Shown here one piece after another: positions 4,374 through 59,952 of a stretch of DNA of 64,000 nt. The notes below the pieces were generated by a model. It was not told the DNA's origin. It ran no database searches and saw only the letters and a list, made by a program, of their open reading frames with translations. The DNA is from a virus: the IMG/VR virus record IMGVR_UViG_3300047160_000733, one strand, 5' to 3'. The first letter of the stretch is position 1. Every line of letters begins with the position of its first letter. The translations under genes were made by a program, and so were the position numbers.

Positions 4374-4775
4374 TTATAAATCTTTTTTACGCTTAACATC
4401 TGAGCAGTTAGAAAAAATCTGTACTCCCAGCGCTTCAGCTGTACGGTCTAAATGATAATGATTCTCAGTAGTGAACCACTCGGGGCGATCCGTCAAACAT
4501 TCCATCATTAAACGCATGGCTGTATTCTGATAGTGATCACCGTAACCATATTCAAACGGAACATAAGCAAGATCAATATACACATCTAAATTTTTATCGG
4601 TTAGTGGGTATTTAACCGGATCAACTCTGTTCGCTGTTTGGCGTGATACAAGGGCGCTTAGCTCTACGCTGTGATAGGTGTTACCGTAGGATGATTGGAA
4701 CCAACGACGCGCCACGATTGAGATTTCTTTGATTTCTTTGATTGAAACGGTGGCGATAATGTTTTTGTTTTTCAT
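4374..4775 (-). CDS. hypothetical protein
   Basis: 133-aa ORF (ARRWFQSSYGNTYHSVEL...). No function recognised. Confidence 0.7.
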   Translation of the reverse strand: MKNKNIIATVSIKEIKEISIVARRWFQSSYGNTYHSVELSALVSRQTANRVDPVKYPLTDKNLDVYIDLAYVPFEYGYGDHYQNTAMRLMMECLTDRPEWFTTENHYHLDRTAEALGVQIFSNCSDVKRKKDL

Positions 4776-5709: not shown

Positions 5710-5886
5710 CTAGTTTAGCGGTTTAATTTCAACGTCCAGAACTTCACCACGCAACAATTCAAACGTATAGAAAAGATCCTGATACACTATAGAGACAACG
5801 GTTAAAACCCCTTCATTGTGCTGTGTGTCTGTTATGCTGTGGATCTTCCCGTATCTTCTGCAATCTTTGTATAGTCTGTTATTCAT
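5710..5886 (-). CDS. hypothetical protein
   Basis: ORF-track 5710..5916 trimmed to the ATG at 5886 (MNNRLYKD...) with AAGGAAAG RBS. The longer start overlaps the -10 at 5915-5920. Confidence 0.5.
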   Translation of the reverse strand: MNNRLYKDCRRYGKIHSITDTQHNEGVLTVVSIVYQDLFYTFELLRGEVLDVEIKPLN

Positions 5887-5914
5887 GGCTGCTTTCCTTG
5901 TATGTAGTCCGATC

Positions 5915-5943
5915 ATTATGGCTGTATATCGTGGCTAGGTCAA
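5915..5943 (-). promoter_or_regulatory. sigma70-type promoter
   Basis: Minus strand TTGACC-N17-CATAAT. Confidence 0.6.
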
Positions 5944-5964
5944 AGATTTTTATGATTTATTTTG

Positions 5965-5993
5965 TTGCTTTCTGTTTTTGTGTGGTCTATAAT
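5965..5993 (+). promoter_or_regulatory. sigma70-type promoter facing the ORF-free locus
   Basis: Plus strand TTGCTT-N17-TATAAT. Divergent from 5915-5943. No translatable ORF with an RBS follows it. Confidence 0.55.
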
Positions 5994-8704: not shown

Positions 8705-9250
8705 CTATCCAATCCAAACATGGATGTCTATGTCTTTATCCGCAAAGAACTCTTCGCGATCCTTTTCACCAATATAGTAAGGTTGACAACGAGCCAAATC
8801 AGTAAAGAACTCTACAGCCTCATCACCCTTAGGTCGGCGTGTTACTACACCGATCTTGTGCCCCTCTTGGATTACAATTGTTGCCAATTGCTTCGCTAGG
8901 TTTACATCCTTGCAGAATAAACCCTCGAAGTCAATAGCTATGTTAAGCTTCTTATCTTTATACTCCTTATCTGGGCGTAGACGGGAGAAATCAGAACAGC
9001 GTTTGATAAGCTCTTCAGCCCGCTGGTTGATCTTACGAGAACCGATATGCCAGTGTACCATCATCACAGAGATTACTGTGGTAGCCGATATGACAGCCGT
9101 TGGATACAAGTTTTCATTGAACATACCAGCCGTATTGGTGATCAATGCTACAACAGACACACATGAAGCGATAACGGCGTACCCTATAAAACACAACCAC
9201 CCAAAATAAAGTGGGAGTTTCACCGCCCACCAAATAATACTCTTAAACAT
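8705..9250 (-). CDS. hypothetical membrane protein with soluble C-terminal domain
   Basis: About three N-terminal TM helices. The C-terminal part has a DxDx-like IAIDFEGLF segment, a degenerate HAD-like motif that I am not confident of. Confidence 0.65.
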   Translation of the reverse strand: MFKSIIWWAVKLPLYFGWLCFIGYAVIASCVSVVALITNTAGMFNENLYPTAVISATTVISVMMVHWHIGSRKINQRAEELIKRCSDFSRLRPDKEYKDKKLNIAIDFEGLFCKDVNLAKQLATIVIQEGHKIGVVTRRPKGDEAVEFFTDLARCQPYYIGEKDREEFFADKDIDIHVWIG

Positions 9251-9956: not shown

Positions 9957-11552
9957 CTATTTGGCGTAACGATCAAAGTTCAGGGCTTTTCCGAACGGAG
10001 CTTGCCAAGAATCGTTGTTGAAGATAACCCACAGAGTGTTCTTGTATTTTTGACTCCACTTCTTACCTTTGTCATCCACACCCTCTTTTACTGAACCGAA
10101 GTAACCGTCCGTGAAGATGATGATCTGGTCGCAATCCTTGATCTCGCTATCAACAAACTTAAATGCACAGTGGCAATCCGTCCCGCCGGACGTAGTGATC
10201 TTGTACTTGACCAACTCTTTTATGTTCTTACGATCATACTTCTGTGGGTTAGCCGCGAATGTTGACCAACAGAACAGAGTGATCTCGAACTCATCAAACT
10301 GACTACCAAAGCCGGAAACCTCTGACCAAACCTTATTAAGTAATGCATCTGTGAATGAACCGGACACGTCGATGCCGATAGCTACACGGATTGTCTTACG
10401 TTTCGACTTGGAAGGCAACACAATACGCTGTGTGTTCTTAATTGCTCCACGGGCACGTAGTACACGTGTTAGCGACCCAGACCGACGGTGGGGCTTCTGG
10501 TACGTAATCTTCGTCCGGCGCATAGATGACAGGCGCTTGATCAGGTATTCAACATAGTTGATCTTTGGCTTAGTCAGAGTTTTAACTAATTCACGCGCTT
10601 CAGGTGGAGCTCCGGCACCCGCCGCTGTGGTAGCATTCACGATAGCTCGTTTCATAGATTCATCGTTGGAGTGCTTTTGGTCCTCCGTTAATCGAGGTTC
10701 AACAGAAGAGTCGATCCCCAAAGCCTTACCAACTTCATTGTTGGTGACATAATCGTCGTCACTATCACCTTGCTCGCCACCTCCGCTAGATGGTGTACCT
10801 GCGCCATGTCCTGACTCACATTTTGGTCCATCAGATTTCTGATTTGTAGGTGTGCCATCGCCCGCGCCCATATGGAAGTCATTACTCATCTTCCCTTTGG
10901 TATCTTTGTTCTTACTCATCAGATCTGTGTAGATCTGCTCTGCCGTCCAACCATCATACTTGTGGTTGATATAGATCTGGGCAAAAGATTCGAACTCTTT
11001 ACCCTCTTCAAAGGTATCCTGCCCCTTCTTGAACCAAGGGTTTCGGCTCATCGCGCAGGATTCCGCATGAGTCTGGATCAAGTCTCCGTTGATATAATAG
11101 TCAGCAGCAATGTTAAACATCACCGGATCGTAGCCCTTACCACGACTTAAGTGGTCACAGATAACGTGACGGACTTCATGCTCAAGGAAGAAGATAACTT
11201 CTTTCAGTGTCTTACGCTTGTAGAAGACATCAATTGACTTCTGGATCTTCTTTTTCTTCTTATCTGACACATTCATCTGAGAGATACGCTGTGAAACATT
11301 GTCCTTACGTTCATCACAGAACCCAGCAATGAATTCAGGGTTAAAGATAATGTCTCGACCATTTGTCGCAATAGTTGGTAGCCAACGGGTATCTGCATAC
11401 ACAGGCATGTTGCTCAACAACGTACCATAGAATGGGCGGTAACGCATAAGCTGGATCTTGGCTGCTTCAATCAGTCGGAATGCTTCTTTCGTTGTTCCCT
11501 TGATTAGGTCGCGCTCGTCTTCTGTCATCAATGCCGGATCGTTGTTTTTCAT
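9957..11552 (-). CDS. VWA-domain protein with N-terminal HExxH metallopeptidase-like domain
   Basis: HEVRH motif (FFLEHEVRHVICDHL). G/S/D-rich linker. C-terminal MIDAS motif DxSGS (IGIDVSGSF). Lies downstream of the AAA+ gene. Confidence 0.85.
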   Translation of the reverse strand: MKNNDPALMTEDERDLIKGTTKEAFRLIEAAKIQLMRYRPFYGTLLSNMPVYADTRWLPTIATNGRDIIFNPEFIAGFCDERKDNVSQRISQMNVSDKKKKKIQKSIDVFYKRKTLKEVIFFLEHEVRHVICDHLSRGKGYDPVMFNIAADYYINGDLIQTHAESCAMSRNPWFKKGQDTFEEGKEFESFAQIYINHKYDGWTAEQIYTDLMSKNKDTKGKMSNDFHMGAGDGTPTNQKSDGPKCESGHGAGTPSSGGGEQGDSDDDYVTNNEVGKALGIDSSVEPRLTEDQKHSNDESMKRAIVNATTAAGAGAPPEARELVKTLTKPKINYVEYLIKRLSSMRRTKITYQKPHRRSGSLTRVLRARGAIKNTQRIVLPSKSKRKTIRVAIGIDVSGSFTDALLNKVWSEVSGFGSQFDEFEITLFCWSTFAANPQKYDRKNIKELVKYKITTSGGTDCHCAFKFVDSEIKDCDQIIIFTDGYFGSVKEGVDDKGKKWSQKYKNTLWVIFNNDSWQAPFGKALNFDRYAK

Positions 11553-12877: not shown

Positions 12878-12926
12878 TCCCCTGTACACAGTTATTAGCT
12901 ATTTGTGCTATTTATTGGGGGTTGAA

Positions 12927-13196
12927 TCAGTCTTCCATGACCTCAATCTCTTTAAACCTTACCGAGAAGTATAGGGTGGTATCATTTTCCCCGCAGTCCC
13001 CTGCATAATCATCAGTATCCATGCCCGCCTCCTCTCTGTAGAACGGCAGAATTTCTTTCTTGATATTTAAGCCGTTTATTTTCCCATGACGCAGACTCCA
13101 TACCGAAAAATCTTCATCAGGGAGATCCAAAACAATAGGGAATGTTGCACCAACGAAACCGCGATAACCACCATTGTTCAGTAGTTTAATCTTCAT
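12927..13196 (-). CDS. hypothetical protein (tandem paralogue of 13193..13417)
   Basis: Starts MKIKLLNNGGY; its neighbour starts MKIKILNDGGY. Confidence 0.65.
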   Translation of the reverse strand: MKIKLLNNGGYRGFVGATFPIVLDLPDEDFSVWSLRHGKINGLNIKKEILPFYREEAGMDTDDYAGDCGENDTTLYFSVRFKEIEVMED

Positions 13197-13417
13197 AAAA
13201 TAACTGCCTCCACTCCAAATTTATGACCTTCCACACAAAACGCCCATGCATGTTCTTTATCTAAATCCGTGAAACCTACCGACTCCAAGACATCAGATGA
13301 AATATTAACCACCTTGCTCTTAGGAAATACTTTGGCCCGATCATCTTCCACAACTAATGGAAAGGTGATTCTCCAGTTTGTACTATATCCACCATCATTT
13401 AAGATCTTGATTTTCAT
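13193..13417 (-). CDS. hypothetical protein (tandem paralogue of 12927..13196)
   Basis: Shares the N-terminus MKIK(I/L)LN(D/N)GGY and (T/A)FP(L/I)V. ATGA-coupled on both sides. Confidence 0.65.
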   Translation of the reverse strand: MKIKILNDGGYSTNWRITFPLVVEDDRAKVFPKSKVVNISSDVLESVGFTDLDKEHAWAFCVEGHKFGVEAVIL

Positions 13418-32690: not shown

Positions 32691-35381
32691 ATGAAAGGAT
32701 TATACATATTCGATGCCGAGGCCGACGGCCTGTTGGACGATATGACTCACTTCCACTGTATCCTTTTTAAGGCTTACGGTGAGAAGAAGTTTTATCTATT
32801 CTTGGACGAGAAGCATGAGGAGTACGGCGGGGCATTACAGTACGCCAAGCAGAAAGCAGTTGGGGCGGAAGCTGAGCTGATCGTGCGGGACTTCTCTGAG
32901 GTTAACGCATTCTTGAGCACAGAACCACGGGCCATCGCTTGCCACAACATGTTTGGTTATGACCTACGAGCTTTTAAGAAGTTCTTGGGGACTAAGTACG
33001 ATATGTTTGAAGACAAGAAGTGTATGGGGATGATCAACGGGAAGCAGGTTTCTATGTTTGATACCCTGTCAATGTCTCGTACACTCTACCCTGACCGTCC
33101 TTTACCAAAAGGTTGTCCTGATCAGGTATTCGTACCTGCACTTGGGCGCAAGAAGAAGGTTGGCCCTCATGGTTTGGAAGCATGGGGTATGCGTGTTGCC
33201 AACCTGAAGGTATCCATTGACGACTGGCGCGGGCTCCCACTGTGGAAGTACGTTGACCGTTGTTGGGAAGACGTTGTAATCAACGAATTAGTTTGGCAGA
33301 GACTGGTTCAAGAGGCCTCAGGGAAAGATAACCCCGACGATAAACGCTTCTACTACGGGGATAAACCGGATCGTCTGCGAAACCAGATGATCAATTGGAA
33401 GGATTCTTTACGACGTGGTATGCTGGCAGACTACCTGATGATTGAGCAAGAGATTCAGGGTGTTTGTTTCGATGAAGAATCAGCTATCAAGCTGCGAGAT
33501 TATTGTGACAAAACAATGGCAGAGATCGAGGCAGATGTTGAACCACAGCTTCCAAAGAAGGAGTTGTCTCCATCTGCACGTCCTACGTTCCCTGCGGCAC
33601 CATTTAAAGCGGATGGGACGATCTCTACTCACGGTTGGTCATGGCTGAAGAGGTTAGATTACCCTGTTAACCAAGAGGCGTTGGATTACAAGGATCCACC
33701 TAAAACTTCGTTCAAGGCTAACGGTGAGGTATCTAAGGCGGGGGAGACTTTCTGTAATAAGGCGGGCATTACCGATCCTGAGCTCTATGCGGACTACCTG
33801 CGAGAGATGATAGATCGGGGAACCAGTCTATCACCTTTGCCTCCAGACTTGATGGAACAGGCCATACAGGACCTCAGGGACCGTAAAGAACCTTCGTTCA
33901 TGGTAGAGATGAAGATCTCCAACCAGAAAGACATCAAGGAATACCTTATCCGAGATGCAGGGTGGAAACCTACGGTTTGGCGACTGAAGGACGTAACAAA
34001 AGATCAGTTCAAGAAGCAACGTAACCAGTTCGAGATTGATGACTTGGTTAACCAATACATTGATTGGCTGGCGGAGGTGTGTCCTCATCGAGGGTTGATC
34101 TTGAAAGAACTTGGACTTACAGAGTTCCAGTTCAAAGATCGTGAGAAGATGTTTAAGTTCTTTGTCCGTAAGGCACGTGGACTACCAACCACCGCCAAGT
34201 TTAAGGATGATCGCGGACAGTTGTGTGAGAACCTTGAGAAGGTTCAGGGTGATTTGGCTAAGCAGATCGTTAAGTGGCTGTCATTACGTAACCGACGATC
34301 AGTTCTAGACCCGATGAAGGAAGATAAGGTTGATACAGGACTTCTTAATCATCCACGACTACGGATCGATGGAAAGTTACCAGCTAGGGCCAACGGTATT
34401 ACCAACACAGGACGACGTAAACACTCAATCTGTGCTAACATGCCTAAGCCTGATCCAAAGGTTTTACTTGGCAAGGAGATGCGAGCCCTCTGGGGAGTTC
34501 CAGAAGGTAAGTATCAGGTAGGTATTGATGGTTCCAACCTTGAAGGTATGATTGCAGCGTGGGGCGCTTATGAGTTCGACGGCGGCGAATACCTACGAAT
34601 CATGGAATCAGGTGATGCCCATGCCCGAAACGCGAAGGCTTATTCCATTGCAGCAGGGGTGGAGGTAACACGTAACGGCGGGAAGGGGGTAACGTATGGA
34701 ATTATGTACGGGGCCCAAGCAGCTAAGATCTCTGCAATGCTAGGCATCTCGTTGGAGAAAGCACAGGCCGTAATCGACGCATTCTGGGATAGTAACTTTG
34801 GTTTGAAAGGTCGTCGTGAAGCCCTAGAGAAGTTCTGGGAAGCAACAGGTAAGCGATTCATCTACGGTATTGATGGACGTAAGATCTGGACTCGTTCTAA
34901 GCACTCATTGTTGAATGCTTATCAGCAGAACGGCGGGGCATCTCTGTTTGACTTGGTTGGTATTTTGTTCCATTATGCTATCAAGAATAACGGGATGTAC
35001 GATGATGGTGTCCGTCGAACCATCTACTACCACGACGAGTATCAAATCGAAGTACCAGAGAAGTACAAGAAGAAGTTCTACTTTGACACACTGGAAGAGG
35101 CTGATTCCTTTGTTAAAGAGTTTAAGGCCCAAGGTAAACATCTCGACGGACATAAACACTTTAAGGTCCGTAAGGATGAGAACAAGAAAGAGGTGTTAGA
35201 TGAGAACGGCAATCCTGTACGTGACCCAGTTCTGAATGCTGACGGGAAGATTGAAATAATCTATTGCCCTGTCGGAGAACTTGTGGTTAAATGTATTGAG
35301 AAAGCAGCCAAAATGCAAGGATCCCCAGTCCACATTACGGGTGAATACTTGACAGGTTATAACTGGGCAGACTGCCACTAG
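32691..35381 (+). CDS. family-A DNA polymerase with 3'-5' exonuclease domain (T7 gp5-like)
   Basis: Exo I YIFDAEADGL, Exo II CHNMFGYDL, pol motif A GIDGSNLEGM, motif B RNGGKGVTYGIMYGA, motif C YYHDEYQIEV. Confidence 0.9.
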   Translation: MKGLYIFDAEADGLLDDMTHFHCILFKAYGEKKFYLFLDEKHEEYGGALQYAKQKAVGAEAELIVRDFSEVNAFLSTEPRAIACHNMFGYDLRAFKKFLGTKYDMFEDKKCMGMINGKQVSMFDTLSMSRTLYPDRPLPKGCPDQVFVPALGRKKKVGPHGLEAWGMRVANLKVSIDDWRGLPLWKYVDRCWEDVVINELVWQRLVQEASGKDNPDDKRFYYGDKPDRLRNQMINWKDSLRRGMLADYLMIEQEIQGVCFDEESAIKLRDYCDKTMAEIEADVEPQLPKKELSPSARPTFPAAPFKADGTISTHGWSWLKRLDYPVNQEALDYKDPPKTSFKANGEVSKAGETFCNKAGITDPELYADYLREMIDRGTSLSPLPPDLMEQAIQDLRDRKEPSFMVEMKISNQKDIKEYLIRDAGWKPTVWRLKDVTKDQFKKQRNQFEIDDLVNQYIDWLAEVCPHRGLILKELGLTEFQFKDREKMFKFFVRKARGLPTTAKFKDDRGQLCENLEKVQGDLAKQIVKWLSLRNRRSVLDPMKEDKVDTGLLNHPRLRIDGKLPARANGITNTGRRKHSICANMPKPDPKVLLGKEMRALWGVPEGKYQVGIDGSNLEGMIAAWGAYEFDGGEYLRIMESGDAHARNAKAYSIAAGVEVTRNGGKGVTYGIMYGAQAAKISAMLGISLEKAQAVIDAFWDSNFGLKGRREALEKFWEATGKRFIYGIDGRKIWTRSKHSLLNAYQQNGGASLFDLVGILFHYAIKNNGMYDDGVRRTIYYHDEYQIEVPEKYKKKFYFDTLEEADSFVKEFKAQGKHLDGHKHFKVRKDENKKEVLDENGNPVRDPVLNADGKIEIIYCPVGELVVKCIEKAAKMQGSPVHITGEYLTGYNWADCH

Positions 35382-35695: not shown

Positions 35696-35949
35696 GTTAT
35701 TGCGAAATGACAAAAGAAGAGCGTAAGTGGGTAGCCAAGCTTAACAAGATGTTAGCTAATCCCCCGTCAACTCGTTTGGGGTTCTTCACCATCGGGGATA
35801 ATTATATCGCCATATTCAACACAGATATCTTGCCGGATTCTTCACCGTTACTAGACAACGAAGATCTTGTTCACGTTGTCAACTCTACAGGTGCCTTATT
35901 CGGAGAGGTTATTTATTTCCCAGAAGCTGTTCAAGGAGTATGTGGATGA
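35692..35949 (+). CDS. hypothetical protein
   Basis: 85 aa, ATGA-coupled. Confidence 0.6.
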   Translation: MSYCEMTKEERKWVAKLNKMLANPPSTRLGFFTIGDNYIAIFNTDILPDSSPLLDNEDLVHVVNSTGALFGEVIYFPEAVQGVCG

Positions 35950-36170
35950 GTAAGAAAAACAAATTGGTTGAAGTTTTTGTAGACGACGATAGCGAAATGA
36001 TGCGGGTAGACATTGACGGTAAATCTTGGTTCGAGGGTAACTTCTGGGATATTGATCGAGATGGTTGGATCGAGATCATGCAGAAGGCCGGACTTAAGGT
36101 TGATGAGTATTCATATCAATACGGCGATGGTTGTGAAGAAGAAGTTGACGACGAGGAAGAAGAGGAGTAA
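35940..36170 (+). CDS. hypothetical protein with poly-acidic C-terminus
   Basis: Ends CEEEVDDEEEEE. Confidence 0.6.
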   Translation: MWMSKKNKLVEVFVDDDSEMMRVDIDGKSWFEGNFWDIDRDGWIEIMQKAGLKVDEYSYQYGDGCEEEVDDEEEEE

Positions 36171-36233: not shown

Positions 36234-36476
36234 ATGGGAAAAGAAAAGTTAGAAATTGGTGATGTTGTTTACCTTAAATCTGGCGGAAAACCTATGACCA
36301 TTGTATCAACACATGAAGGTCTTGGTCTTATAGATACGGGCCATGTTGGGGTTATGTGGATGGGTGAAACGGGTGTTATGCATTCTTCCAAACTGTCAGT
36401 GAATGTAGTCACCAAGACTCAACAATCCGCATACTACCTACGATACGCATCTATTAGCGATATTGGGGGGTTATAA
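36234..36476 (+). CDS. small protein, YodC/DUF2158-like
   Basis: KLEIGDVVYLKSGGKPMTIVS resembles the DUF2158 signature (recollection). GGAGGA RBS. Confidence 0.6.
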   Translation: MGKEKLEIGDVVYLKSGGKPMTIVSTHEGLGLIDTGHVGVMWMGETGVMHSSKLSVNVVTKTQQSAYYLRYASISDIGGL

Positions 36477-37970: not shown

Positions 37971-38204
37971 ATGACACCAAGACTAAGAACTGTGGAGATT
38001 GCAATTAAGAAGTATGCAGACAATGGTAAAGCCCTGCCTCCTAATCTCCTATACGGGAAATTCCACGGTTGGGGTAATCAGGGATTGGAAGGGGATAATG
38101 GATCAGTTGCTTCAGAGACAATAGGTATTGTTGAGCTTTCCGATGGTCAGATCAGCACATACTACCCTTACCAGTTACGCTTTATAAAATGGAGTAACAA
38201 ATGA
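37971..38204 (+). CDS. hypothetical protein
   Basis: 77-aa ORF. Confidence 0.6.
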   Translation: MTPRLRTVEIAIKKYADNGKALPPNLLYGKFHGWGNQGLEGDNGSVASETIGIVELSDGQISTYYPYQLRFIKWSNK

Positions 38205-38485
38205 AAAAGACATACATTGTAAAATACGATCTCTTCCCATACTACATCGTCATTAAGGGGGAGAAAATGGAGTTTTGCGGAGAGACAAGGGTTATGTCCA
38301 GTAGTCTTGGAAACTTCAGTATGAAGAATATTCTTGGGGAGTTTGGACTAGAAGCATACGAAGACCTAAAAGCTGAGAAGCGTATGTTGTGCAGAAAGTA
38401 TGATGAAGGACTCTTACAACTTAAAAAAGATTTGCTTGCATCTTCGTCGATAAGCGATATAATGAAACACAAAATCCCAGACTAA
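38201..38485 (+). CDS. hypothetical protein
   Basis: 94 aa, ATGA-coupled. Confidence 0.6.
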   Translation: MKKTYIVKYDLFPYYIVIKGEKMEFCGETRVMSSSLGNFSMKNILGEFGLEAYEDLKAEKRMLCRKYDEGLLQLKKDLLASSSISDIMKHKIPD

Positions 38486-38502
38486 CAGAAAAGGAAAAAA
38501 TA

Positions 38503-39456
38503 ATGAGCCAACTTACCAAGATTGAAACTTCAAAAGATGGCGTTATGTACTTTGTGCATCCGCAAACAGGTAAAACCCTCGTCAATATGCGATCACTGAT
38601 CAACTTCTTAGCTCCTGAGAAGTTCCATAACCGAATCAATATCATGCTGTCAAATTCATGGAACATGTTTGACCAGTGCGGGCGTCTGAAGAACTTTGAA
38701 GAGTCTGAGAAATTGCATTTCCATTGTCCTGTTGCTTGTCGGAACATCCGTGCCACTAAGTGGGGAGACACTGAGGGAGCGATCCGATTCGTTAAGACCA
38801 TCCATATGTACTTGCACAAGACTGTTGCCGATGCCGTCTGGACGATTAAGAGCTTTAAACATGATGTAAATACAGTCCACGCCGCCACTGTAAACTGGCC
38901 CTCTGTACGTGTTAATGAAACAGCTCCGATCCTACCAACCAAGTTGACCGATGTGTCCGTTGTTTCCAACACCTTGAAGATGCGGATCGATTGTTTGGAG
39001 TATGAATTGAAAACTCACAAGGATACAATTGGTGCTCTTCGTGTAAAGGCTGTTGGTGATGATCTAGAGGTAAAGAAATCTGCAAAAGATCTGGCTAAGG
39101 CTCAGTGTCGAATTGAAGAGCTTGAACTTCAGGTGGCTAACCTTACGAATACTGCTTTGACTTCAACTCATGGTAACGTATTCTTCAACGATGAGGCCTT
39201 CCTGCTGGCCTGTGATAACGTCGGAATTAGTCGGGAGTATGCGAGTAAGCATTTGATGAGCGAGGCCTGTAGCGTTGTCTCACAGAGCATCATGACTATG
39301 GCGCAGATCCATATTGCGAACTCAGGCTTCAGGACTACAGGGGCTGAGTGTCTTAACTCTTGGGGTATTCGTAGATTGAAGGAGCTAGACCTGAAGAAGG
39401 TTGCGGTCAATGTCTATACAGACCATCAGAAAAAGAAGCTGAATAAAAACTTCTAA
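38503..39456 (+). CDS. hypothetical protein with central coiled coil
   Basis: 317 aa behind AAAGGAAAA. Heptad-like region CLEYELKTHKDTIGALRVK...CRIEELELQVANL. Confidence 0.7.
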   Translation: MSQLTKIETSKDGVMYFVHPQTGKTLVNMRSLINFLAPEKFHNRINIMLSNSWNMFDQCGRLKNFEESEKLHFHCPVACRNIRATKWGDTEGAIRFVKTIHMYLHKTVADAVWTIKSFKHDVNTVHAATVNWPSVRVNETAPILPTKLTDVSVVSNTLKMRIDCLEYELKTHKDTIGALRVKAVGDDLEVKKSAKDLAKAQCRIEELELQVANLTNTALTSTHGNVFFNDEAFLLACDNVGISREYASKHLMSEACSVVSQSIMTMAQIHIANSGFRTTGAECLNSWGIRRLKELDLKKVAVNVYTDHQKKKLNKNF

Positions 39457-39465
39457 GACTCCAAC

Positions 39466-39493
39466 AGGCCACCTTCGGGTGGCCTTTCTTTTG
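39466..39493 (+). terminator. rho-independent terminator
   Basis: AGGCCACC-TTCG-GGTGGCCT followed by TTCTTTTGG. Confidence 0.8.
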
Positions 39494-39504
39494 GTTTCAA
39501 GTTA

Positions 39505-39513
39505 TGGTAAAAT
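39505..39513 (+). promoter_or_regulatory. possible extended -10 promoter of the cassette unit
   Basis: TGgTAAAAT. The same 9-mer occurs on the minus strand at 59931-59939 upstream of a baseplate gene. Confidence 0.4.
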
Positions 39514-39543
39514 AGCTTATTGATTGATATTTTGGAGGAACCT

Positions 39544-39681
39544 ATGTGGAATATGCTGTTGAGTCAAACTAAAGCCACTTTCGGGGCTAGGTATGGTGCT
39601 GCAAAGATAAAGATAATGAAGGCAGTTAAACCTTCAGTCCGGTTCGGCGCGGCTAAGATTAAAATAATGAGGAAGGCATAA
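39544..39681 (+). CDS. micro-ORF s0 (45 aa, very basic), cassette 1
   Basis: GGAGGA RBS. MWNMLLSQTKATFGARYGAAKIKIMKAVKPSVRFGAAKIKIMRKA with an internal repeat GAAKIKIM x2. Stop overlaps the next ATG (TAATG). Confidence 0.55.
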   Translation: MWNMLLSQTKATFGARYGAAKIKIMKAVKPSVRFGAAKIKIMRKA

Positions 39682-40772
39682 TGAGTACAGTGTACATGAC
39701 GGATTTTGATGATATGTTCAATGCTGGTACAGCAACATCATGGACTTATGGAAAAGGCGACCTTCTTGCAAGATTTATTGCTGACTCTTCTAGGGTTCAA
39801 GATGGAACGAATAGGAACGGGGTATTAAATTTAGCAATAGGTAGCAATGTGGGTGTACTGAAGTGGGTGACAAAAGAACTCATGATGAAATTTCCACAAA
39901 CTACAACACCATATGCCAACGGTACAGGATCAATAATCTTCTCGGCAGTAGAGAGAAAATCTAAAAAAGAATTCGTAGTTGGTGAGTGCTATACCCTAGG
40001 GGCTAAACTTATTAAAAGTTGGTCAACTACAACGCCAATTGTCATGGTATATGGGTCAAATGATCAGGTTGCAAATAAATTCTCCATTGCAACATCTAGT
40101 TCAGCAACAGATATGTATGTGGAAACTACAGTCAAGATAACTGGAGTGACAGACACTGAATTATCTGGCATTATTGAAGTGTTTATCAACGGTGTTAAAA
40201 CATACAGTCAGGCGTGGAAAGATATTGGGTCAATAATTATAGGTCCGTATTATGCTCAGGTGTGGAATGGGTCATCTTTGGTATATCCTACAATGCCTCC
40301 TGCTGGCGGGCAGATTTCATACTCAAATATCTATGTAGATTCTAGTGCGGGGGATCCAACCAGACACGGTTCTGTGATTATATCATCACAAAATTTTGAC
40401 AGTGTTAAGGTAGGAGGGGAAACAGAGGAAAACAAAGACAGGTTCTACTCACAACATTTTAATATTGAGTCTGGTTTGTTTGGTATGACAACTGACGGGT
40501 ATGTTCCCAGTGGGAACGTTGAGTTTGAGGCTACGATCCAAGACACATCGGATATCATATCTGCAACTTGCTCCTTACTTTGTGACAGCTCTGACCCAGC
40601 TATCCCAGTTAGTGTTGTTTCAAAGATTGATAAAAAGGGGGGAGGTTCGGCTTCGGAAACATCTAAACTAGCGTTGCTGGTCGATAGAGGCCTTGGAGTG
40701 AACATACCAATAGACCCTGTAGATATTTTGAATGGGGGTATTACTTTTAAAAATACCACCGAGAGGTTATGA
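39681..40772 (+). CDS. cassette large protein P1 (363 aa), jelly-roll/ConA-like lectin fold suspected
   Basis: Shares the block DMYVETTV...IEVFINGV...IGSIIIG with P2 (NVFVEVVV...VSVYYNGT...IGSISIG) and P3 (DVYVEVCF...IQMYYNSE...). Confidence 0.75.
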   Translation: MSTVYMTDFDDMFNAGTATSWTYGKGDLLARFIADSSRVQDGTNRNGVLNLAIGSNVGVLKWVTKELMMKFPQTTTPYANGTGSIIFSAVERKSKKEFVVGECYTLGAKLIKSWSTTTPIVMVYGSNDQVANKFSIATSSSATDMYVETTVKITGVTDTELSGIIEVFINGVKTYSQAWKDIGSIIIGPYYAQVWNGSSLVYPTMPPAGGQISYSNIYVDSSAGDPTRHGSVIISSQNFDSVKVGGETEENKDRFYSQHFNIESGLFGMTTDGYVPSGNVEFEATIQDTSDIISATCSLLCDSSDPAIPVSVVSKIDKKGGGSASETSKLALLVDRGLGVNIPIDPVDILNGGITFKNTTERL

Positions 40773-40773
40773 T

Positions 40774-40920
40774 ATGTGGATAACACTACTAGCATCTGGG
40801 CAAGCCTCAGGCCAATCTGCAATAATTCAATCTGTCAGTGAGTACATGTATGTTGTCAGCCCAAAATCGGCAGTTGTTTGGACATTGACAGAATATCTTT
40901 ACACCATCAAGAAGAAATAG
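40774..40920 (+). CDS. micro-ORF s1 (48 aa), cassette 2
   Basis: ATG lies 1 nt after the P1 stop, behind GAGAGG. MWITLLASGQASGQSAIIQSV... The first 9 codons equal s2 at protein level, with 4 synonymous differences. Confidence 0.6.
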   Translation: MWITLLASGQASGQSAIIQSVSEYMYVVSPKSAVVWTLTEYLYTIKKK

Positions 40921-40928
40921 GGGATACT

Positions 40929-42029
40929 ATGATTGTAGGAATGGGTAGTTGGAATGGTCTTGCTTCAGTTGACTACGCTGCAAGTATGGCCCAAGATCTT
41001 CGCACACGGATCAGGGAGATAACCAAACTTGATAAGGGTCTTTCACCAATTAATACTTTTGACGCTAATACTCAATCTCAGATATCCTTTGTAGCTGGTA
41101 CAGGGGTACGGTGGAAAAATGTGATAGCTAATGGGTTGCGTATGGGTTACGGAACTTGGCAACCGACTAGGAACTACGGTGGAAAGTCTTGCAAGCGGTT
41201 TATTTTTGGGGTGTGTTTGGCGAGGGATGGGTCTAATTACGGGCACCCCGTGGTCATGTACGGTAACTTCCCTCAAGATGCGGGTGGTTACAAAACAGGT
41301 TGGTTAGGTGCAGGTACAAGTGCCACTGGTAACGTTTTTGTTGAGGTTGTTGTAGACTATGGCGTTGATGATTATGTAAGTGTATACTATAATGGCACAC
41401 TGACATTGAAGGTCAAGATGTCGAATATTGGTTCTATCAGTATTGGATCTCTAAACGCAACAACAGATATTAATGGTGGGGCAATTGCACCATTCCTAAG
41501 ACCAGAAATCAACGGACTATTGGAGTTTAAGCAGTGGTATTATGCCGTCAACGGACCAGATGATGTAGTTCTGGATGAGCCACGTGGTGCGTTCTATGTA
41601 GGGAAGATGAATCCTTATGGTCGGGAAGATGGCGATGAAGATGGTGGTACTCCTCCAGACTTCTCTTCTCAATACCCTATAATCAACAGCACCTTACCAT
41701 ATACTGCCGGAGTGTCGTCACCACGTGTAACTCTAGCACCTTCGGGGGGTAAGAAAACCGATTTCAGATTTGACAAGGCATCGGGGACCGATATAAGTGT
41801 AATAGCCGTAGCTACTAGGACTCTCGGTATGTCATCAATATCCGGCCTCAATTCCGGTGTTGAGCAAACCATTACGGTAGGTGGTGAGGTTAAGAAAAGT
41901 ACAAACTTCGTCCCTTTGACATCTGCAACGGTACAAGGTAACTACCAAAATGTGTTGCAGTTTTCTACACCTAAAGATGCGCTGGAGAAAGGTGATGTCA
42001 AGGTGTCTTATTCTTCAGTGAAGGTGTAG
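40929..42029 (+). CDS. cassette large protein P2 (366 aa), paralogue of P1/P3
   Basis: ORF-track 40878..42029 trimmed to the ATG at 40929 behind TAGGGGA. Motif block as for P1. Confidence 0.75.
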   Translation: MIVGMGSWNGLASVDYAASMAQDLRTRIREITKLDKGLSPINTFDANTQSQISFVAGTGVRWKNVIANGLRMGYGTWQPTRNYGGKSCKRFIFGVCLARDGSNYGHPVVMYGNFPQDAGGYKTGWLGAGTSATGNVFVEVVVDYGVDDYVSVYYNGTLTLKVKMSNIGSISIGSLNATTDINGGAIAPFLRPEINGLLEFKQWYYAVNGPDDVVLDEPRGAFYVGKMNPYGREDGDEDGGTPPDFSSQYPIINSTLPYTAGVSSPRVTLAPSGGKKTDFRFDKASGTDISVIAVATRTLGMSSISGLNSGVEQTITVGGEVKKSTNFVPLTSATVQGNYQNVLQFSTPKDALEKGDVKVSYSSVKV

Positions 42030-42032
42030 CCT

Positions 42033-42227
42033 ATGTGGATAACTCTTCTAGCCTCTGGCACTGTCGGGGGTACTTTAGTTGGAGCTACCAGTACAACCCT
42101 GATGTTTAGTCAGGTTTCATCTGGGGCATATATCGGTGCAACATCGGCTACCTGTTTATACTCTATCTTGTCGGCAGTTAAAGTTGGACCGACACAAACA
42201 ACAACGATATTTAGGAGATCTGTATAA
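42033..42227 (+). CDS. micro-ORF s2 (64 aa, G/S/T-rich), cassette 3
   Basis: ATG lies 3 nt after the P2 stop, behind GAAGGTG. MWITLLASGTVGGTLVGATSTT... Stop overlaps the P3 ATG (TAATG). Confidence 0.65.
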   Translation: MWITLLASGTVGGTLVGATSTTLMFSQVSSGAYIGATSATCLYSILSAVKVGPTQTTTIFRRSV

Positions 42228-43342
42228 TGACAAAGATGTTTGTAGACCCTCAGGCGAGAATGACACCAATAACCAGCTATGTTCTTGGTAATAACGCCAC
42301 ATGGTTACAATTATCACAGAACACTGCAAGTGTTGTCGGCGCTATTACTGGAGGAAACCCACTATACCCTAGGGCGGGTAATGCCGTTAGTGTACGGTCT
42401 GAGAATGGCGGGAATTTGGACTACTTACTGTTCATGGCTGCGGCAGGCACAGGGTCGCCAACAACAAGTCAAAACTCAAGGGCTTCTCTGGAGCAAGAGG
42501 TGTATAGTATAAACGAACTAACCAATCCTAACTATCCAATGGAGGTTATTATAGGGGCGAGGGTTAGAAGAAGTGCAGGAAGGTCTGCTCCACTGGCTAG
42601 TGTGTTTTACGGTTCGGCTAACTTATTGTATGGGCCGAATACGTCGGAGACTGATGTGTATGTCGAGGTATGTTTTAATATTGTTACACGTAAAATCCAG
42701 ATGTACTATAATTCAGAGTTGGTTATGGAGAGTACCCTAACAATCTCATCTGGTGCCACTGTGGCTATCCTGTATGTAGGTTCAAACCCAACAAGTAACG
42801 GGAATAACTCAGCAATAGCTAACGGTGAGACAATGAACATCTCCTCTATTGTGGGCATTCAGAATAAAACAGCGGGGGATATGGAAAGACTTGGCCCTGT
42901 TTCGTGTCAAAGGATACCTGCCAGCGCATCACCAATCTCTAATCCCGTTGGTGATTGGGCTGACCAGAGTGCTGTTGTTTCTAGCCTTACAAAGACTTTT
43001 GAGAACACAACCACAGGTCTTACTCCGTTGGTAAGTCCTGCGACATTGAATACTAGCCCAACTGGCGGTACAGTTGATTGTGCTTTACCTGCGCTACCTG
43101 CGGGGTATGAGCTGATCGGTTTTGCGACAACCACCTCAGCACAGCGAGCTAATCCCGCTAGTCCTGTGAATCTGGCAGTAAGTACCCTATTGGACGGGGC
43201 GCTTGTTGGTGATGTTGTTAAAGCATCTATAAAATCACCGACGACACACGTTCAGCCTAACGTAGTTCTCTTAAGTAAACCGATAAAATCTGGCGATGTA
43301 TATCCTACTAAATATACAGTTAAGTTTGTCAGCTCAAAATAG
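42227..43342 (+). CDS. cassette large protein P3 (371 aa), paralogue of P1/P2
   Basis: DVYVEVCFNIVTRKIQMYYNSELV block. S/T/P-rich C-terminal half. Confidence 0.75.
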   Translation: MTKMFVDPQARMTPITSYVLGNNATWLQLSQNTASVVGAITGGNPLYPRAGNAVSVRSENGGNLDYLLFMAAAGTGSPTTSQNSRASLEQEVYSINELTNPNYPMEVIIGARVRRSAGRSAPLASVFYGSANLLYGPNTSETDVYVEVCFNIVTRKIQMYYNSELVMESTLTISSGATVAILYVGSNPTSNGNNSAIANGETMNISSIVGIQNKTAGDMERLGPVSCQRIPASASPISNPVGDWADQSAVVSSLTKTFENTTTGLTPLVSPATLNTSPTGGTVDCALPALPAGYELIGFATTTSAQRANPASPVNLAVSTLLDGALVGDVVKASIKSPTTHVQPNVVLLSKPIKSGDVYPTKYTVKFVSSK

Positions 43343-43365
43343 GGACTGTGTGTTTATTACCTTCA

Positions 43366-43390
43366 AGGGCCCTTCGGGCCCTTTTCTTTT
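43366..43390 (+). terminator. rho-independent terminator
   Basis: AGGGCCC-TTCG-GGCCCT followed by TTTCTTTTG. Confidence 0.8.
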
Positions 43391-43404: not shown

Positions 43405-43433
43405 TTGACATGTCTTATCTGAGTAGGTAATAT
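43405..43433 (+). promoter_or_regulatory. sigma70-type promoter
   Basis: TTGACA-N17-TAATAT. Confidence 0.65.
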
Positions 43434-58397: not shown

Positions 58398-59897
58398 TTA
58401 AATTATCTGACTGTAGGTTATATTGTCTGCTGACAAGTTGAAAAGCTGAGTGGTGGCTGGCTTAACATCATTACTTGTGTAAGATGTATCAGGCTGACCA
58501 ACATTCTTAACTTCCACAATCACTTTCGTGAAACGATCTGGACGGATGGTCGAGCTAACAACGGCCCCGAGTTGATGGTTGTATAACGTAGCTGCGATAC
58601 TGCCACCGTTAACCATAGCAACCAGAGCATTATTAATCTCCGTTTCCTCCACGATAGAGACAGGCCTTCCTTGATATTTGACACGTACCGCAATATTGCG
58701 TTGCTCTGCTTTTGTGTGGTACACAGTTTCAATTTGGTCATCCTCTGTGGTTATATCGGTGAATACGGCACCATAGGTTACGTTGCTTAAAGCTATGGTT
58801 TCGTAGAGGGCCTTGTTGATCTCATCAGTATCACCACCATATACCACAGTCATAAACTTGTAAGGCGGGATCCCCAGTGAATTGGTCTTATCGGTATTGT
58901 TAGCGAAGATCTTAACCTTCTCAACACCCTCAACCGTATTCAGTAATCTTGAGAGGATCGCTGGGCGTGTGGCTGCGTTAGCATTACTTATTGTACTGGC
59001 GGCACGCACACGATAGGCGTTATCACTCTCAACATCTGAGCCATCAGCGAAGGCTTTAATGTTTGTCAATGATACAAAGCCAGAAGGTGTTGGGGACATA
59101 GAGGTAATTGAACCCTCTCCACGTGCTAAATCTCCTGCCTCTGTGGCTCGTAGCCCCATGTCGATTGTCTTGTCACCTACAAGAGGTGATGTTCGAAAAT
59201 CAACTCGGGTAGACAGACCTATTAACCTCTTACTTGTATCATAACCAATCCAGAGCTGACCTGCGGCACTATCAATAAAGATCCTTGCGTCATTAGTTTG
59301 AATTGTATTCTCTACAATAAATCTCTTAATGTCACTGAAGAATTTATTAAGTGGTGCAGAGTTTGGAGTGGTATTAGTTAGATTAAGGGTTAAGTTCTTT
59401 GTTGTTCTGTCACTGGTATTCTGGATCGTAAATCTGTATTCCCCAACTCTTAAATCTCGCGACAAGATAGAATGGGCAATAATATTACCAGCTACCTGAA
59501 CATCCTTCGTTAATTCAAAATTACCCGCATCAATATCCCAAGCAGCAACAGAATAAATCATGTTGTATGGGACTGACGCATTAAGTGTCATTTGAGCTGT
59601 GCCTGTAGAACGTGTTTTACCACGACGATAGACACCACGCTTAGCAAAGAGGTCATCGAGGTACATACCTTCAGCACCTGCCTGTGTCTGAGCCTGATAC
59701 ACCCCGCCACCTAATAACCAAAGCTCATACTCTCGCTCTGCAAATACAGAGATAAACTTATCTAGAGCGGAGTTGGAAGCAGTGTTCATTTTTGGGCCAA
59801 GTATCTCTTTTATAGACACTTTTATCTCTTCACGTAGGTCTTCCATTCCGGGTCTAATGTACCCGTTTGGAGTTAATCCGTACTTTCTGCTTGCCAT
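58398..59897 (-). CDS. baseplate J-like protein (P2 gpJ / Mu gp47 position)
   Basis: 499 aa. Follows the W/gp25-like gene. Assigned by size and synteny. Confidence 0.6.
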   Translation of the reverse strand: MASRKYGLTPNGYIRPGMEDLREEIKVSIKEILGPKMNTASNSALDKFISVFAEREYELWLLGGGVYQAQTQAGAEGMYLDDLFAKRGVYRRGKTRSTGTAQMTLNASVPYNMIYSVAAWDIDAGNFELTKDVQVAGNIIAHSILSRDLRVGEYRFTIQNTSDRTTKNLTLNLTNTTPNSAPLNKFFSDIKRFIVENTIQTNDARIFIDSAAGQLWIGYDTSKRLIGLSTRVDFRTSPLVGDKTIDMGLRATEAGDLARGEGSITSMSPTPSGFVSLTNIKAFADGSDVESDNAYRVRAASTISNANAATRPAILSRLLNTVEGVEKVKIFANNTDKTNSLGIPPYKFMTVVYGGDTDEINKALYETIALSNVTYGAVFTDITTEDDQIETVYHTKAEQRNIAVRVKYQGRPVSIVEETEINNALVAMVNGGSIAATLYNHQLGAVVSSTIRPDRFTKVIVEVKNVGQPDTSYTSNDVKPATTQLFNLSADNITYSQII

Positions 59898-59930
59898 TAT
59901 TCCTCCGAGCAGATATCCAACGATGAGATA

Positions 59931-59939
59931 ATTTTACCA
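59931..59939 (-). promoter_or_regulatory. possible extended -10 promoter
   Basis: Minus strand TGgTAAAAT, identical to the 9-mer at 39505-39513. Located just after terminator 59953-59982. Confidence 0.4.
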
Positions 59940-59952
59940 CAATACCTCCCGA

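Follow-up and report, generated by a model that had tools for sequence, protein, structure and literature searches.

The 64,000-nucleotide stretch of viral DNA analysed here (IMG/VR record IMGVR_UViG_3300047160_000733, referred to as the window) carries at 39466-43390 a transcription unit made of three tandem two-gene cassettes. Each cassette consists of a micro-open reading frame (micro-ORF), named s, followed by a gene for a protein of about 365 amino acids (aa), named P. With a probability of roughly 55%, the P proteins are late-type accessory proteins of the virion that are lectin-like and exchangeable, and each of them has a repeat peptide as its dedicated partner. The pattern is not due to chance and is annotated nowhere. 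In this interpretation it follows the theme of a fibre plus a helper, with the helper in an unusual upstream position. Searches of Pfam, PHROG, NCBIfam and PADLOC gave no usable match for P1-P3 or the micro-ORFs, in line with a preliminary description, made from the letters alone, which regarded the architecture as undescribed.

The unit is a self-contained expression block, in which a terminator, a promoter, three cassettes and a second terminator follow one another:

39466-39493, plus strand: terminator; hairpin at 39466-39485 with the stem AGGCCACC/GGTGGCCT of 8 pairs (6 G-C), a TTCG loop and a T-rich tail
39502-39515, plus strand: promoter-like 14-mer TTATGGTAAAATAG with the extended -10 element TGGTAAAAT at 39505-39513; a clear -35 element is absent
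39544-39681, plus strand: s0, micro-protein of 45 aa; ATG start with GGAGG 6 nt upstream
39681-40772, plus strand: P1, 363 aa, ConA-like two-domain family
40774-40920, plus strand: s1, micro-protein of 48 aa
40929-42029, plus strand: P2, 366 aa, same family as P1
42033-42227, plus strand: s2, micro-protein of 64 aa
42227-43342, plus strand: P3, 371 aa, same family as P1; the protein that was modelled
43365-43390, plus strand: terminator closing the unit; hairpin at 43365-43383 with AAGGGCCC/GGGCCCTT, 8 pairs (6 G-C) and a T-rich tail

The first hairpin closes an upstream gene for a 317-aa protein and forms the 5' edge of the unit. It is kept in three related contigs, L002, L006 and L008. The genes within the unit are tightly coupled. 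The s0/P1 and s2/P3 junctions are TAATG overlaps (39679-39683 and 42225-42229), and the remaining gaps measure 1 nt (P1-s1), 8 nt (s1-P2) and 3 nt (P2-s2). Six alternating ORFs with coupled junctions had been proposed beforehand, and the ORF calls bear out both the coordinates and the coupling. The proposed single transcription unit with its own extended -10 also held, as both hairpins and TGGTAAAAT were found. A structured RNA between the P genes was considered and rejected: the substitutions track codon structure, and Rfam recognised no RNA family in the unit, its only matches being sub-threshold and located on the terminator hairpin.

Close relatives of the window reveal that the cassettes behave as units. 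Four cassette types are combined as follows:

Window: s0P1, s1P2, s2P3
L006 and L007: s0P1, s1P2, s3P4
L002 and L003: s1P2, s2P3, s3P4
L008 and L009: s2P3, s3P4

Without exception, each micro-ORF type is accompanied by its own P type. Cassettes are gained, lost and replaced whole between phages that are otherwise about 96% identical. For instance, L006 matches the window at 95.9% identity as far as 42043, a point 11 nt inside s2. The two sequences are then unrelated until 43346, directly after the stop codon of P3, which amounts to a clean replacement of one cassette. The closing terminator (43365-43390) again shows homology of the window to both L006 and L002. The s0P1 indel relative to L002 is bounded by two ATGTGGA start sites. 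The exchange breakpoints are the ATGTGGA leader and the P stop codon. Whatever the first cassette is, the promoter and leader region before it stays the same, and a 28-mer around the promoter is identical in L002. The earlier proposal of three tandem two-gene cassettes is strengthened by this conserved pairing and by the inheritance and exchange of the cassettes as units. Moreover, the paired arrangement recurs in every relative found, which excludes a chance ORF pattern.

The micro-ORFs are genuine coding genes, as had been supposed. The ratio of nonsynonymous to synonymous changes (pN/pS) across micro-ORF orthologues is low in frame only, with values of 0.11-0.37 in frame and of at least 0.5, mostly above 1, in the other two frames. 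The in-frame ratio is 0.25-0.31 for s1 compared with its orthologues in L006 and L002, and 0.11-0.37 for s2 over four orthologues; one near-identical micro-ORF pair with 6 differences gave 0.74. In the orthologue comparisons, substitutions concentrate at third codon positions.

The micro-proteins are 45-68 aa long and have a common layout. The N-terminal motif MWxxLLxxG is present in every one of them, in jumbo phages in the forms MIENLLGSG and MQEILLxxN. It is followed by two or three cassette-specific strand-like motifs (STTRVGVIF, AVERVVRVY, FSGAWVTRIY, GAAKIKIM, LRVYGMYPTFL), which are separated by Pro-rich linkers. Of the 16 micro-proteins, 14 have a repeat period of exactly 17 residues, while in the s2 type it is 17-18 residues. 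In the window, s0 combines the leader MWNMLLSQ with two (Y/F)GAAKIKIM(K/R) repeats, 17 residues apart, in which 5 of 10 codons differ synonymously. Both s1 and s2 start with MWITLLASG; s1 continues with two 17-residue repeats (SAxxxxxxEYxY) and s2 with three repeats ((V/I)G(A/P)Txx(T)xxx(F/Y)). Within one micro-protein, the repeats share residues though up to 6 of 9 codons differ synonymously, which indicates that the peptide, rather than a repeat in the DNA or RNA, is under selection. Synonymous differences are also seen among the leaders, and a DNA-level recombination repeat was rejected as the sole cause of their conservation. A fusion of s and P by frameshift or read-through was also rejected, since the relative frames vary (overlaps of 1, 4 and 11 nt; gaps of 2, 3 and 8 nt). 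Furthermore, the motif STTR(V/I/L)G tracks one P subfamily, which comprises P4, P0012 and the P proteins of the second cassettes of Serratia phage ChuuTotoro and phage ABPH49. The motif is retained even at an identity of only about 22% between the partner P proteins.

These features bear on two other roles for the micro-ORFs. They might be cis-acting leader peptides, which would tune the translation of P by arrest or attenuation. Such a role would suit their place directly upstream of P, where the stop and start codons overlap or nearly touch in every cassette, and the conserved N-terminal motif. However, the cassette-specific 17-residue repeats are under strong purifying selection across deep divergence, as the persistence of STTR(V/I/L)G illustrates, and each micro-ORF has its own Shine-Dalgarno or coupling signal. 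No arrest peptide is known to have such repeated motifs under purifying selection, and a leader-peptide role is very unlikely. Hardly credible is a system resembling those for ribosomally synthesised and post-translationally modified peptides (RiPPs), in which the micro-ORF would encode the precursor and P the modifying enzyme. The layout of a leader and a variable core, with some leaders ending in GG, is reminiscent of these systems, but no RiPP enzyme, protease or transporter domain was detected with Pfam and NCBIfam. There would also be one putative enzyme per peptide, and P is predicted to have a lectin fold and has relatives in structural modules, both described below.

The micro-proteins mostly escape gene callers, and several micro-ORFs are absent from public annotation or gene calls. 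The annotations of ChuuTotoro and ABPH49 each have the first of two micro-ORFs only. The following were missed:

L012 (ChuuTotoro), 8804-8995: second micro-ORF, unannotated, with a GTG start
L015 (ABPH49), 5790-5981: second micro-ORF, unannotated
L014 (PCH45), 4508-4714: micro-ORF, unannotated
Window, 40774-40920: s1, missed in the JGI calls of L005

As for the large proteins, paralogy of P1-P3 is weak but, judging from their alignments, real. BLASTP gave E = 2e-5 for P1 and P2 (28% identity over 131 aa), 0.02 for P2 and P3, and 0.03 for P1 and P3, and all three align over their full length to the family profile with an hhalign probability of 100%. They had been described as diverged paralogues, which these comparisons support. 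Relatives are few. Among 5.8 billion proteins, P1 and P2 have almost none; P1 has near-identical copies only, and the P2 orthologues P0002 and P0003 are 91% and 70% identical to it. A few more relatives, of 350-400 aa, came from a profile search of 1.84 billion representatives. The alignment of 24 members shows the conserved blocks GKxIxGxRxxR, YVEVxxD...VYYN, IGS and SDxY...DxPxDxxPxGRLGP, followed by a C-terminal domain of about 130 aa. The composition, rich in Ser, Thr, Gly and Val, with scarce charged residues and almost no His, is typical of fibre and adhesin proteins.

The N-terminal domain of P is, according to structure prediction, a ConA/LamG-like jelly roll. An AlphaFold2 model of P3, built from a 16-sequence alignment, reached medium confidence, with a predicted local distance difference test score (pLDDT) of 57.6 (75-83 in the core) and a predicted template modelling score (pTM) of 0.51. 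A first run with a 9-sequence alignment gave a pLDDT of 35.6 and was discarded. Foldseek matched the N-terminal ~220 residues of the model to ConA-like jelly rolls in the PDB with a probability of 1.0 and E-values of 5e-6 to 1e-4. These comprised the HCN domain of botulinum neurotoxin and NTNH (BoNT/NTNH, 5e-6), PL7, PL18, SPRY and sialidase lectin domains. A C-terminal beta domain is also present in the model according to Foldseek. Pfam Laminin_G_3 gave weak, sub-threshold matches in 4 of the 24 members (best E = 0.016) and none for P1-P3 at E <= 1. The jelly roll guessed in the preliminary description thus agrees with both the Foldseek result and the weak Laminin_G_3 matches. P is thus predicted to share the fold of known ConA-like (LamG) domains but differs from them in having no Laminin_G_3 match above threshold.

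A jelly roll of this kind could also belong to an enzyme, namely a PL7/PL18-like lyase or a GH16-like glycanase acting as a depolymerase on host polysaccharide, virion-borne or not. The matches of the model to PL7/PL18 alginate lyases (~1e-4) point in this direction, as do the best hit of a sequence-profile search of the PDB, a GH16 domain with E = 0.42, and the Glu of the YVEV strand, invariant across the 24 members. This Glu is, however, the only invariant acidic residue. Its partner Asp is lost in P1 and P3, no GH16 (ExDxxE) or PL7 catalytic motif is present in P, and lectin-type domains without enzymatic function lead the fold matches. The single invariant acidic residue and the near absence of His favour a lectin or structural role over catalysis, and a depolymerase is improbable.

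The location of distant family members provides the structural context. Every distant member examined has its own micro-ORF. ChuuTotoro, ABPH49 and two metagenomic PhiTE-like phages (L010 and L011) carry one or two cassettes in their structural region, between capsid/Inh-like genes and the head-tail adaptor gene, flanked by collagen-like fibre genes. In the jumbo phage PCH45, the cassette is convergent with the tail-fibre operon gp107-111, which is essential and was detected in virions. Its P protein is gp106 (QFP93094.1), and its micro-ORF, of 68 aa, occupies 114146-114352 of MN334766. Two jumbo contigs of IMG/VR hold one and two cassettes; in one of them (L017), the cassette is followed by a gene for a fibre-like repeat protein. 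The preliminary description had implied that the unit is unrelated to virion modules, a view that these positions do not support.

Searches of 50,697 phage records by megablast and tblastn, with the unit, P1 and P3 as queries, yielded no relatives. Scans of IMG/VR were likewise negative, whether based on the three-paralogue alignment, on the gene for the 317-aa protein or on the promoter 28-mer. Searches with a six-sequence alignment found none in 185,579 bacterial and archaeal genomes or among JGI metagenome contigs. The carriers appear to be lytic, as none was found in cellular genomes.

In PhiTE, the slot that holds the cassettes in ChuuTotoro, ABPH49, L010 and L011, there beside collagen-like proteins, is occupied by pTE215-217, of which pTE217 is a putative hexamer-centre "Pagoda" decoration protein (PMC11972413). 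PhiTE differs in having no micro-ORF cassette, and the unit of the window sits outside this slot. pTE217 and pTE216 are not family members, with an hhalign probability to the P family of 0.4% for the former and no place among the top hits for the latter. The N-terminus of pTE217 (..GLVTGYAIMDQETGQVKTISELFEGG) nevertheless resembles those of small and large collagen-like proteins beside the cassettes, which on this likeness may be capsid-anchored fibres:

L013, 15376-15870: pTE217
L012, 10136-10450: collagen-like protein
L011, 4338-4655: collagen-like protein
L011, 4733-6577: collagen-like protein
L010, 9286-9633: collagen-like protein

The next most abundant unassigned virion peptide of PhiTE is pTE203 (PMC11972413). 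Its gene, phiTE_203 (L013, 1824-2468), stands alone next to pseudo-ToxI. The protein matches the P core motif weakly (hhalign 23%), which is a lead only.

Putative remote relatives of P are found in virions. All ORFs of at least 140 aa in four regions (the window, PhiTE, AchV4 and ChuuTotoro) were scanned with hhalign. Outside the family, only AchV4_0025, 0026 and 0027 exceeded 50%, with 55-65% and E ~1e-4; all others stayed at or below 23%. Foldseek of the P3 model against BFVD returned full-length matches in AchV4 (2e-12), JS26 (6e-9 to 5e-7), Enc34 and other phages. The JS26 matches are gp50, gp51 and gp53, which lie within a five-gene tandem array (gp50-54) after the tail-fibre gene gp55. 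AchV4_0025 and 0026 were detected in virions by liquid chromatography-tandem mass spectrometry (PMC7996906, Table 1). By elimination against the proteins listed as undetected in a preprint (10.64898/2025.12.19.695335), JS26 gp50-54 would be virion components, and gp50, gp51 and gp53 also essential.

These Casjensviridae arrays resemble the unit in several ways. Their proteins, of about 320-415 aa, fall in the same length class and have the same predicted two-domain fold as P, their core motif YVExxxD...YxNxxLV...IG...DxY...R(L/I)G aligns with the P family, and the genes are tandem paralogues. They differ in that interleaved micro-ORFs are absent, the gaps being 2-12 nt, and in that their carriers are siphoviruses; the sequence homology to P is marginal. 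ConA-like virion proteins in tandem thus recur in phages as an uncharacterised feature, and the interleaved micro-ORFs are the new part. A first hint at the function of such tandem proteins in Chi-like phages also follows from this work.

The promoter points in the same direction. The 14-mer TTATGGTAAAATAG is identical upstream of a small collagen-like structural gene in L012, L015, L011 and L010, where a related GGTAAAAT element also follows the terminator at the head of the cassette arrays. In the window, TGTGGTAAAAT precedes the baseplate wedge gene. The shared 14-mer suggests that the unit is co-expressed with structural genes. In addition, the element TTGTGGTAAAATTA (59929-59942, minus strand) lies after a terminator-like hairpin and upstream of the baseplate-wedge gene (58398-59897). 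It contains the GGTAAAAT core of the cassette promoter, which is also present in intergenic sites of the structural modules of ChuuTotoro, ABPH49, L010 and L011. Elements of the TTGTGGTAAAATTA type may represent the promoters that this phage group uses for its structural genes.

Location and promoter also help to weigh an intracellular, non-structural accessory module for anti-defence, host takeover or superinfection exclusion. In such a module, expressed together with the middle genes, the micro-protein would regulate or partner P, which would be a binder or inhibitor. The unit is indeed placed, in the window as in its close relatives, on the replication strand among small hypothetical genes downstream of the DNA polymerase gene, and fast cassette turnover and rarity are typical of arms-race genes. 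The more distant L008 carries a Lar-like gene (restriction alleviation, 569-877) and an Imm-like gene (superinfection immunity, weak match, 12926-13306) in the same block as its two cassettes. Against such a role, the more distant members sit in structural modules and not in accessory islands, PADLOC gave no meaningful match, the composition is fibre-like, the promoter is shared with structural genes and the remote homologues are virion proteins (PMC7996906). This module is rather unlikely.

Given the structural context, the virion homologues and the promoter, the known theme that comes closest is that of a fibre or adhesin accompanied by a small helper, which had been set aside in the preliminary description. 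Its statement that the unit matches no known phage module stands for toxin-antitoxin and defence models, as neither PADLOC nor the 185,579 species genomes offered a match or relative, and for RiPP models, but not for the fibre plus helper. Examples of fibre modules are the P2/Mu fibre with Tfa and T4 gp37 with gp38 and gp57A. As in these, the unit combines a large gene with a small, co-inherited cognate partner in adjacent, coupled genes, whole modules are exchanged, and in most carriers they lie in or next to structural genes. Differences are considerable, however. The small gene here is located upstream, and no similarity to Tfa, gp38 or gp57A was found in searches of PHROG (13 micro-proteins) and of Pfam and NCBIfam (window proteins). 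The micro-proteins are built from a 9-aa shared leader and two or three 17-residue repeats, the large protein is a ConA-like protein of about 365 aa lacking a fibre shaft, and the array of the window is in the replication block. The unit also recalls phage morons by its own promoter, its flanking terminators and its differing genomic positions across phages. Classical morons are prophage genes expressed in lysogens, whereas the carriers here appear to be lytic.

In the fibre-and-helper interpretation, P would most likely be a lectin-like adhesin or a decoration protein, carried on a fibre, on the tail or on the head. Each micro-protein would bind its own P. It could staple or nucleate a P oligomer in which each subunit is engaged by one repeat, or it could stack into a small beta-solenoid. 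The N-terminal motif that all micro-proteins have in common could anchor the complex at a shared site. Alternatively, the micro-protein may be a dedicated assembly chaperone. Whole-cassette exchange at the leader codons would then yield a repertoire of binding specificities.

Several points weigh against this interpretation. In the window, the unit lies within the replication block. It shares its strand with the early and middle genes and is separated by about 6 kb from the virion genes. The family is rare, with 11 clusters in the 1.84 billion representatives, and no recognisable anchor domain was found in P. Virion proteomics covers remote homologues (hhalign 55-65%) or proteins matched to a model with a pLDDT of 57.6. 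Late timing is read from the likeness of promoters. The window shows no enrichment of the 14-mer when as many as 3 mismatches are allowed, and a window-wide late-promoter consensus is therefore not claimed. Binding between s and P is a proposal that builds on their strict co-inheritance. Finally, fibre chaperones are usually encoded downstream of the fibre gene, and the upstream position of the micro-ORF in all cassettes examined is atypical for them.

A bolder proposal, which is tentative and on balance doubtful, makes the micro-proteins a new class of assembly or adaptor peptide. The docking motif together with the repeats, arranged one per P subunit or folded as a mini beta-solenoid, would set the oligomeric state. 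The leader codons would serve as the swap junction, and the array as a plug-and-play host-range or adhesion system outside the structural block. The strict 17-residue repeats offer a compact, testable case of a repeat peptide organising a partner protein. If the virion-accessory interpretation is true, large lytic phages, including rV5/PhiTE-like and nucleus-forming jumbo phages, carry an unrecognised portable receptor-binding or decoration module. Specificity could then change by swapping a 1.3-kb cassette at a defined junction, which would be useful for host-range prediction and engineering.

The unit is also poor in GATC sites. It contains 9 of them (2.3 per kb) and accounts for the two lowest 2-kb bins of the window, which averages 6.0 per kb. 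The lower density relative to the flanks had been noted before and is correct, but the upstream figure of about 24 is not: 19 sites were counted in the 3.4 kb upstream, and 21 downstream. Resampling of synonymous codons with the codon usage of the genome predicted 15.8 +/- 3.1 sites in the unit, and 9 or fewer occurred in 1.6% of the resamplings (p ~0.016). The deficit is partly due to amino-acid composition, and the depletion is therefore real but modest. Across the window, GATC is over-represented compared with about 3.8 per kb estimated from base composition, and reaches 10-12 per kb in the first 6 kb.

Gene comparisons place the window in a large lytic myophage, a distant relative of the Vequintavirinae. 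The DNA polymerase encoded at 32691-35381 shares 66-67% identity with those of ChuuTotoro, ABPH49, 4MG and PVP-SE1. Baseplate and tail-fibre genes are encoded on the minus strand from about 49 kb. The position of the unit in the replication/middle block, on the strand opposite to the virion genes, was described correctly beforehand; the distance that had been called far is the 6 kb given above.

The surroundings of the unit hold some further observations. The gene for the 317-aa protein (38503-39456, plus strand) has no family match and is a mosaic relative to L002: its ends align (38000-38811 and 39172-39550) and its middle is replaced. Directly after the closing terminator, a sigma-70-like promoter (43405-43433, plus strand; TTGACA, 17 nt, TAATAT) presumably restarts transcription of the downstream small genes. 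Two more small ORFs with an MWM start, of 76 aa (35940-36170) and 40 aa (36354-36476), both on the plus strand, are unrelated to the cassette micro-proteins except for the MW start. The 76-aa ORF has a poly-Glu tail and is kept in L002 and L006. Among the left-hand minus-strand genes, an ORF of 531 aa (9957-11552, minus strand) is HNH endonuclease-like (PHROG 1314, E = 2.5e-97).

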